Source of the DNA: Escherichia coli | GTDB lineage: Bacteria > Pseudomonadota > Gammaproteobacteria > Enterobacterales > Enterobacteriaceae | DNA length: 64,000 nt | Strand: one strand, 5' to 3' | Assembly (NCBI RefSeq): GCF_001677475.2 | Contig: NZ_CP015229.1 | Shown: piece by piece, positions 29,660 to 29,840 of the stretch | How the letters are laid out: each line of letters opens with the position of its first letter | Numbering within the stretch: position 1 is the first letter of the stretch | Position numbers and translations under genes: made by a program | Notes under the pieces: model-generated | What the model was told of the DNA's origin: nothing | What the model saw: only the letters and a program-made list of their open reading frames with translations | Database searches by the model: none

Positions 29660-29840
29660 GCACCCACTTTCAGGGATGTTTTTGCGGGTTATTTGAGGGG
29701 TGTTTGCGGGTTATTTTGAATGTCTTGCGGGTTACATTCTGGCTGATATTTAAATACGTTGTTTTTTTAACGTATTGATATTAAAGAGTAAAAGATAATT
29801 AGCACGCGAAGATAACCCGCTAACCCGCATAACCCGCACT
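29660..29840. repeat. Direct and inverted repeat cluster (TTGCGGGTTA / TAACCCGC) near island right end
   Basis: 3 direct copies of (T)TTGCGGGTTA within about 60 bp and 3 copies of the inverse AACCCGC(T/A) about 120 bp downstream, in a non-coding AT-rich tail. Confidence 0.5.

Follow-up and report, generated by a model that had tools for sequence, protein, structure and literature searches.

An orphaned replication-origin module as the most probable source of the repeat array in the tail of a capsid-forming PICI of Escherichia coli

A capsid-forming island inside a prophage terL

The window analysed here, a 64,000-nt stretch of Escherichia coli DNA (contig NZ_CP015229.1), contains a prophage whose terL gene is interrupted by an island at ~14717-30111. 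The N-terminal part of the prophage terL lies at 13689-~14716 and the C-terminal part resumes at 30112; alignment with the uninterrupted terL of phage Evi placed the junctions at 14703-14716 (attL) and 30112-30125 (attR), with an overlap of 14 nt. The island is co-oriented with the prophage and is a capsid-forming PICI (cf-PICI) of the type described by Alqurainy et al. (bioRxiv 10.1101/2022.09.08.507074), in the helper-embedded configuration reported by Tommasini et al. 2023 (PMC10111431). Of 5426 complete E. coli genomes searched by megablast with positions 29400-30300, 33 contain the junction in full. E. coli 042 has a ~15-kb annotated island inside the terL of a lambdoid prophage, which encodes an integrase, HTH regulators, BRO-N, Icd-like and DUF4222 proteins, a DUF927 protein, SSB, PerC, the major capsid protein, prohead protease, portal, connector, HNH, TerS and TerL.

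Two further features of the window were observed outside the region of main interest. Between the HNH gene and terS of the prophage, the expected position of the helper prophage cos, there is an IHF-consensus site at 13181-13193 on the minus strand and a G-rich word, GGGGAGGGGCGGGTCAAAT, within 13060-13170. Inside the island, a C4 antisense RNA of the P4/P1 immunity type (Rfam RF01695, 72 bits) maps to 18652-18739 on the plus strand, within a 2-kb stretch (~17300-19380) that has no convincing ORFs. Near this RNA, the short ORF ends at 18380-18500 and 18900-18964 encode similar peptides (…VFAARIRQGSHHA and …IFVARIRQGVNHVQ) and may be duplicated Icd-like genes or gene fragments.

The island's TerL ORF ends at 29602, leaving a non-coding tail at 29603-30111. 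The right-hand end of the tail belongs to the attR region (30023-30125, plus strand), which comprises a pair of GTGTATTGC words starting at 30023 and 30035, an IHF-consensus match at 30075-30087 (minus strand) between that pair and the core, and the 14-nt core overlap at 30112-30125. A second GTGTATTGC pair, at 14847 and 14859, lies at the left end, where the attL core is at 14703-14716. All four copies of the word in the window are found at the island ends, as two pairs with copies 12 nt apart (14847-14867 and 30023-30043), a placement suggesting that they are likely integrase arm-type sites. Further into the tail, positions 29867-29968 are homologous to the lambda-like cosN region of classical E. 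coli PICIs, with corresponding segments at 17190-17300 of locus L003 and 17004-17110 of locus L005. The cosN-like word, which in reverse complement reads GACGGGGCGGGCGGTCCC in L005, has diverged to TGAGTGCTCACCTCGTCAG in the window island, even though the TerL here is 99% identical to that of islands keeping the lambda-like word. The segment is probably not the island's own cos, which, by synteny with HK97-type HNH phages, would be expected between the HNH gene and terS at ~27312-27460.

Anatomy of the repeat array

The repeat array that is the subject of this study lies to the left of the cosN-like segment, at 29682-29866. Three direct iterons, TTGCGGGTTA, are found on the plus strand at 29682-29691, 29704-29713 and 29725-29734, with start-to-start distances of 22 and 21 nt, or approximately two helical turns. 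Three close-packed inverted iterons, (A/C)TAACCCGC, follow on the minus strand at 29812-29820, 29820-29828 and 29829-29837, with spacings of 8 and 9 nt, and read ATAACCCGC, CTAACCCGC and ATAACCCGC in order. The core 8-mer GCGGGTTA is present in each of these iterons, in direct orientation at 29684, 29706 and 29727 and inverted at 29813, 29821 and 29830. It occurs seven times in the 64-kb window compared to 1.63 times expected, a count reached in 0 of 100 shuffles, and six of the seven copies fall within 154 bp.

The two iteron sets are separated by a 77-nt AT-rich spacer (29735-29811) in which the GC content drops to 17-20% at the centre (40-nt windows), making it a candidate region of bending or melting. 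Within the spacer, TATCAATACGTTA at 29768-29780 (minus strand) is one of only five IHF-consensus matches in the window. A box, TTAGCACGCGAAGA, that is conserved in related blocks occupies 29799-29812 immediately left of the inverted iterons, and the array closes at 29847-29866 with a (TA)5 tract plus CGAAAAATTG (with TATATATATA at 29847-29856, after the inverted iterons), which is the conserved right end of the block and the likely easiest-melting site.

As a description, the original prediction for this region was accurate. It had placed three direct and three inverted repeat copies here, in the non-coding right tail of an island, with the inverted copies about 120 bp after the direct ones. 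The first direct copy is 119 nt from the first of the inverted copies, the last direct copy is separated from them by the 77-nt spacer, and the array lies between the end of the island TerL ORF and the resumption of the prophage terL. The statement that no ORF explains the repeats is also borne out, as no ORF of >=40 aa covers the array and the next plus-strand ORF after the island TerL starts at 29844. With regard to function, the prediction that these are non-coding repeats of a protein-binding type stood, while none of the three functions put forward (a packaging signal, the binding array of a second regulator or a small structured RNA) turned out to be the best supported.

The RNA reading, widened to include a transcriptional operator, is extremely unlikely. 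Compared with shuffled sequence, the region does give a much more favourable fold (z = -4.4 and -5.8), but the fold consists only of the inverted iterons, with large asymmetric loops (spacings of 22/21 nt on one side and 8/9 nt on the other). L003, L007, L008 and L009 have uncompensated changes that break the central stem at 29748-29781, and in the related cluster termed part A below, the copy numbers are unequal (two direct compared to four to five inverted), which makes hairpin pairing impossible. A scan of the tail against Rfam 15 gave no match at the gathering score, only a noise-level hit to mir-363 (17 bits, where 58 are required), and scans of the tail for promoter-like or terminator-like sites found none.

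Occurrence of the block and covariation of its iteron word with Rep

A sensitive search with the tail alone gave matches in 370 genomes. Only the att-proximal 140 nt of the tail are specific to the integration module; the stretch containing the array (~29662-29968) also turns up, 78-85% identical, in islands integrated at other att sites. In the prototype cf-PICI EcCIEDL933, for which neither of the cf-PICI papers gives an ori or cos position, the homologous block is not in the tail and instead is intergenic, directly 3´ of the DUF927 gene. The same location was found in AR_0077 and in 15 IMG/VR loci. In all of these islands the block (79-85% identity), hereafter block B, is contiguous with a preceding second GCGGGTTA cluster, part A, in which a pair of direct copies 9 bp apart is followed by AT-rich DNA and then by four to five inverted copies. 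In E. coli 042, PEC178, PSS-15, 22-250 and about 17 IMG/VR contigs, the two clusters are split, with part A (++----) no more than ~35 bp from the stop codon of DUF927 and the right tail holding block B (+++---); L001, L007-L009 and others are sibling islands of this split type.

A pattern scan of IMG/VR returned 68 loci, and three situations were distinguished in the survey: parts A and B contiguous after rep (~15 loci plus L002, L006 and L010), part A after rep with a right-tail block B (~21 islands, several att sites), and a tail-located block B in islands whose rep is not of the DUF927 type. The +++--- pattern and its spacing were constant across all three. Every fully visible cognate island contained block B once or twice; the DUF927 contigs L021, L024, L047, L052, L059 and L041, considered as candidates for having part A only, stop short of the tail. 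When 100,044 species-representative genomes were scanned with the pattern GCGGGTTA-N12-15-GCGGGTTA-N65-95-TAACCCGC, there were six matches, all unrelated to Enterobacteriaceae. One match that we inspected, at 1773-1883 of L011 (a Saprospiraceae MAG), is an unrelated long hairpin with tandem heptamers of the GTTGCGA and GTTACGG types.

This distribution bears on whether the repeats could be arm-type sites for the integrase or excisionase in attP/attR, a reading that we consider extremely unlikely. The block does lie in the attR-side tail, 275-430 bp from the core, and repeats in both orientations together with IHF-like sites resemble attP arms. Arm sites should covary with the integrase and the att site, and the array does not: the block is associated with at least five integrases and att sites (prophage terL, cspD/clpS, rcnR/thiM, yejO and dinD) and is also found in mid-island positions. 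The GTGTATTGC pairs at both island ends are the better candidates for arm sites.

What the block does accompany is the type of Rep. The word GCGGGTTA was found with DUF927 Reps in 47 of 47 rep-proximal clusters, an association that is partly circular, since the GCGGGTTA pattern itself had been used to fetch many of the loci; unbiased support comes from the loci fetched by protein (L086-L092) and by tail homology. Reps of the "DNA primase family" are followed by GGTAGA/TCTACC (L003 and L005) and RepA-type reps by AAGTGGGG or AAGTGAGG (the window and L005), with AGTGRGG repeats after rep in all 13 of 13 RepA-type loci. In the loci surveyed, GCGGGTTA never followed a RepA-type or primase-type rep.

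Given that many loci had been fetched by the motif, more distant DUF927 Reps were fetched by protein identity. For Klebsiella and Salmonella Reps at 67-68% identity, every copy in parts A and B reads GTGGGTTA, in an unchanged architecture that includes the box (TTAGCAAGCGAAGA) and the TA tract. For an E. coli Rep at 65% identity, parts A and B have the same architecture with TTGCCTCA/TGAGGCAAC, and there is a distal copy 6 kb downstream with three direct iterons at 21-22 nt, an AT-rich spacer, three inverted iterons at 9 nt and (TA)5. Other elements of the block follow the classes to different extents. The box, compared at homologous positions in L002, L006, L086 and L088, has the consensus TTAGCA(C/A)GC(G/T)AAGA and is kept in two of the classes, GCGGGTTA and GTGGGTTA, and is not conserved in the third, TTGCCTCA. 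The core of the IHF match, TTGAT, is kept in the GCGGGTTA class, with a near-identical word in inverted orientation in the TTGCCTCA class, and all GCGGGTTA-type blocks have TTGATAT and a TTAGCAMGCKAAGA box in common. A (TA)n tract after the inverted iterons is found in all three iteron classes as well as in the RepA-type origin.

The part of Rep that changes with the iteron class is its C-terminal end: in a sliding-window comparison between classes, the last ~110 residues were 25-52% identical compared to 76-84% for the helicase core. The DUF927 Rep matches the solved SaPI Rep 8tch (E = 4.5e-14) and is also related in sequence to Cch (5dgk). SaPI Reps recognise their iterons by a C-terminal winged-helix domain (PMC9371898, PMC7581432), and we infer by extension that GCGGGTTA would be recognised by the C-terminal domain of the DUF927-family Reps of enterobacterial PICIs. 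Since GCGGGTTA makes up the canonical origins immediately downstream of DUF927 rep genes and changes along with the C-terminal domain of Rep, the array is of the initiator-binding kind and not, as had been proposed, that of a second regulator. A MITE or transposon end, considered on account of a clean indel between L003 and L005, was rejected in view of the block's homology to rep-proximal origins and its covariation with Rep.

The comparison among related islands that had been suggested as a check also revealed that the iteron columns are kept while the spacers drift. In six tail blocks, 1 of 48 iteron columns varies compared to 37 of 125 other columns (Fisher p = 2e-5), and all three direct iterons are identical across these diverged blocks. 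With rep-proximal blocks included, for a total of 10, the counts were 2 of 40 and 59 of 110 (p = 1e-8). This pattern of substitutions shows purifying selection on the iterons across tails, including those of islands with a non-cognate rep.

The origins of SaPIs and other PICIs lie just downstream of rep and have iteron sets of opposite orientation flanking an AT-rich centre (PMC6092414, PMC9371898, PMC7581432). With three iterons on each side of a 77-nt spacer, the array has the required organization of at least two oppositely oriented iterons per side (PMC9371898, PMC6092414). Its location differs, as the block is immediately 3´ of rep in L002, L006 and ~15 IMG/VR loci and not in the window, where the iteron word also is not cognate to the island's own Rep.

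The same observations make it very unlikely that the array is a packaging signal, as originally proposed, in which cosB-like sites beside cos would be bound by the small terminase or by an Rpp-TerS complex. The arrangement in PICI tails is suggestive of such a role, in that the block is 75-230 bp from the lambda-like cosN sequence, on the cosB side, with an IHF-consensus site between oppositely oriented repeats as in lambda cosB. However, cosB sites should keep a fixed position relative to cosN and terS and covary with the small terminase, and the block does neither. In EcCIEDL933-type islands with the same TerS and TerL, an identical module lies directly 3´ of rep, far from cos and terS; among islands sharing a TerL (92-100% identical), some have the block in the tail and others have it 6 kb from there, directly 3´ of rep; and islands devoid of terminase genes contain it too. 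Conversely, the tail of L005 retains the cosN-like region and lacks exactly the block. The iteron word varies with Rep and not with the terminase, the cosN-like word itself varies among islands with 99% identical TerL, and the island's own cos is expected elsewhere, as described above. Given the cosB-side position in PICI tails, the block may nevertheless have a secondary role in packaging.

Exchange of the rep module and the orphaned origin block

The resident rep of the window island (19927-21336, plus strand) encodes a RepA-family helicase with the Pfam domain AAA_25 and is not of the DUF927 type. Directly 3´ of this gene, at 21338-21527, is the only AAGTGGGG cluster in the window, with iterons on both sides of an AT-rich/TATATATA centre, which corresponds to the origin of the resident RepA helicase. 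The tail block is 8.3 kb downstream of the resident rep, after terL. No DUF927 gene was found in the 64-kb window and so, with a RepA/AAA_25 rep that has an origin of its own, the tail block is without a cognate initiator in cis.

Comparison with sibling islands revealed how this combination came about. Outside 20159-21754, the window island is 93-95% identical to that of 042; the counterpart of this segment in L001 is 10238-12301. Over the first ~230 nt of rep and the DUF4222 gene upstream of it, the window and L001 are 78% identical. The rest of rep and the origin are swapped, with DUF927 and GCGGGTTA in L001 and RepA and AAGTGGGG in the window, and similarity returns just upstream of ssb. 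As the DUF927 rep and part A were replaced, the tail block lost its partner. The exact recombinant is absent from the 5426 complete E. coli genomes, in which the best match to the rep module was 91.3%; it was found only in one IMG/VR contig that is 100% identical to the window and therefore is probably from the same source.

The window is not the only case of an intact block B with a non-cognate rep. Such islands were found at least five times independently (the window, L038/L099, L003, L018/L067 and L053), with a different RepA allele in L038/L099 and a primase-type rep in L003 (BH100). In the TTGCCTCA class, L091/L092 have a GCGGGTTA-type rep and origin together with a distal orphan TTGCCTCA-type block (16545-16690), while the distal TTGCCTCA block of L090 (18068-18215) matches that island's own Rep-proximal iterons. 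L090-L092 are E. coli islands at one att site, and the distal block of L090 is flanked by ~65-nt direct repeats (17853-17915 and 18229-18295).

Taken together, we favor the interpretation, at a probability of roughly 0.7, that the array is a SaPI/PICI-type origin iteron module that most probably is an inert leftover of module exchange in this island. In cognate islands, Rep hexamers would bind both iteron sets, perhaps with IHF bending the AT-rich spacer between them. Rep would then melt the AT-rich/(TA)n DNA and load onto it, starting replication of the excised island. Block B would act together with part A 3´ of rep, whether the two are contiguous or ~8 kb apart. Block B is present in every fully visible cognate island and part A lacks the (TA)n tract, from which we infer that block B probably is the melting core and part A an accessory cluster. 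In an ancestor of the window island, homologous recombination would have exchanged the DUF927 rep and part A (~20159-21754) for the RepA/AAA_25 helicase with its complete AAGTGGGG origin, and the tail block may still be intact because the swap was recent. The array thus probably is a PICI iteron origin, an element of a known kind, in an unusual, left-over position. To our knowledge, a distal and sometimes non-cognate origin block is an arrangement that has not been described in the literature searched.

An alternative that is possible, if unlikely, is that the orphan block works in trans, either by having the DUF927 Rep of another PICI in the same cell replicate this island (hitch-hiking) or by titrating that Rep, as a decoy or incompatibility element directed against a competing satellite. 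In iteron plasmids, titration and handcuffing by iterons are established phenomena. Distal blocks that are intact yet non-cognate recur (at least five independent GCGGGTTA cases and one TTGCCTCA case), the iterons bear the mark of purifying selection across tails that include the orphans, and several PICIs per genome are common in E. coli, with up to 4-9 matching places in individual genomes. Recurrent orphan blocks could therefore be kept for a reason and not be leftovers. However, only 2 of 17 RepA-type IMG/VR contigs contain the block, and ~21 of the ~26 tail blocks of known rep type have a cognate DUF927 rep, as would be expected from recent module swapping alone. A DUF927 initiator is missing from the 64-kb window itself. 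Moreover, the swaps may be recent, so the intactness of orphan blocks is no evidence of selection on the orphans. The more general proposal, that enterobacterial PICIs routinely keep distal foreign origin blocks for co-replication by, or sequestering of, another satellite's initiator, we regard as improbable; if true, it would amount to satellite-satellite parasitism or incompatibility at the level of the replication origin.

Under the leftover interpretation that we prefer, a conspicuous repeat array is explained as a replication-origin module and not as a packaging or RNA element. An iteron word can now be given for the DUF927 Rep class of Gram-negative PICIs, including EcCIEDL933. The origins of this class are double (A and B), and block B can sit kilobases off in the island tail, as in P4. 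Satellites exchange rep modules and in doing so leave non-cognate origin blocks behind. If such blocks are used in trans, they would constitute a new route of interaction between co-resident satellites; if unused, they are markers of recent module exchange and a reason for caution in annotating the "cos" and "att" regions of satellites.

Comparison with known systems

The likeness to lambda cosB (R1-R3 and the IHF site I1) is limited to oppositely oriented short repeats around an IHF-consensus site near a cosN-like sequence; unlike cosB, the block moves independently of cos and terminase and covaries with Rep. The control loci of iteron plasmids (P1 incA and F incC) are likewise extra iteron clusters outside the minimal origin that could titrate or handcuff an initiator, and by analogy they are a possible model for the orphan blocks. 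In contrast to these loci, the orphan block has no initiator in cis, and we know of no copy-control phenotype for a PICI.

Bacteriophage P4 offers a closer parallel for the split arrangement. In the P4 record, crr borders attP and immediately follows the gene for alpha, the primase-helicase that binds both clusters, ori is 4.7 kb away, and the same 8-mer is found in both; both clusters are reportedly required in cis (Flensburg & Calendar 1987; Ziegelin 1993). Sibling islands similarly have two clusters of one iteron kilobases apart, one of them 3´ of rep, and part A is like a crr unit in having two direct copies 9 bp apart with inverted copies ~45-50 bp later. The iteron words differ from those of P4, and the window island keeps the distal cluster only, without the two separated clusters of a bipartite origin. 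The only Pfam domain of the DUF927 Rep is DUF927, and BLASTP against P4 alpha detected no similarity (best E 0.011 over 54 residues). P4 is therefore an analogy and not a family to which these origins belong.

The best match is with the Rep-ori systems of SaPIs and Gram-negative PICIs (Ubeda 2007; Fillol-Salom 2018, PMC6092414; Qiao 2022, PMC9371898). Unlike these, the window block lies 8.3 kb downstream of rep in an att-proximal tail, the resident Rep is an AAA_25 protein with its own origin, and origins of the DUF927 type are double, with separable halves (part A and block B). What the array shares with them is opposed iteron sets around an AT-rich middle, and a Rep-type-specific word that tracks the Rep C-terminal domain.
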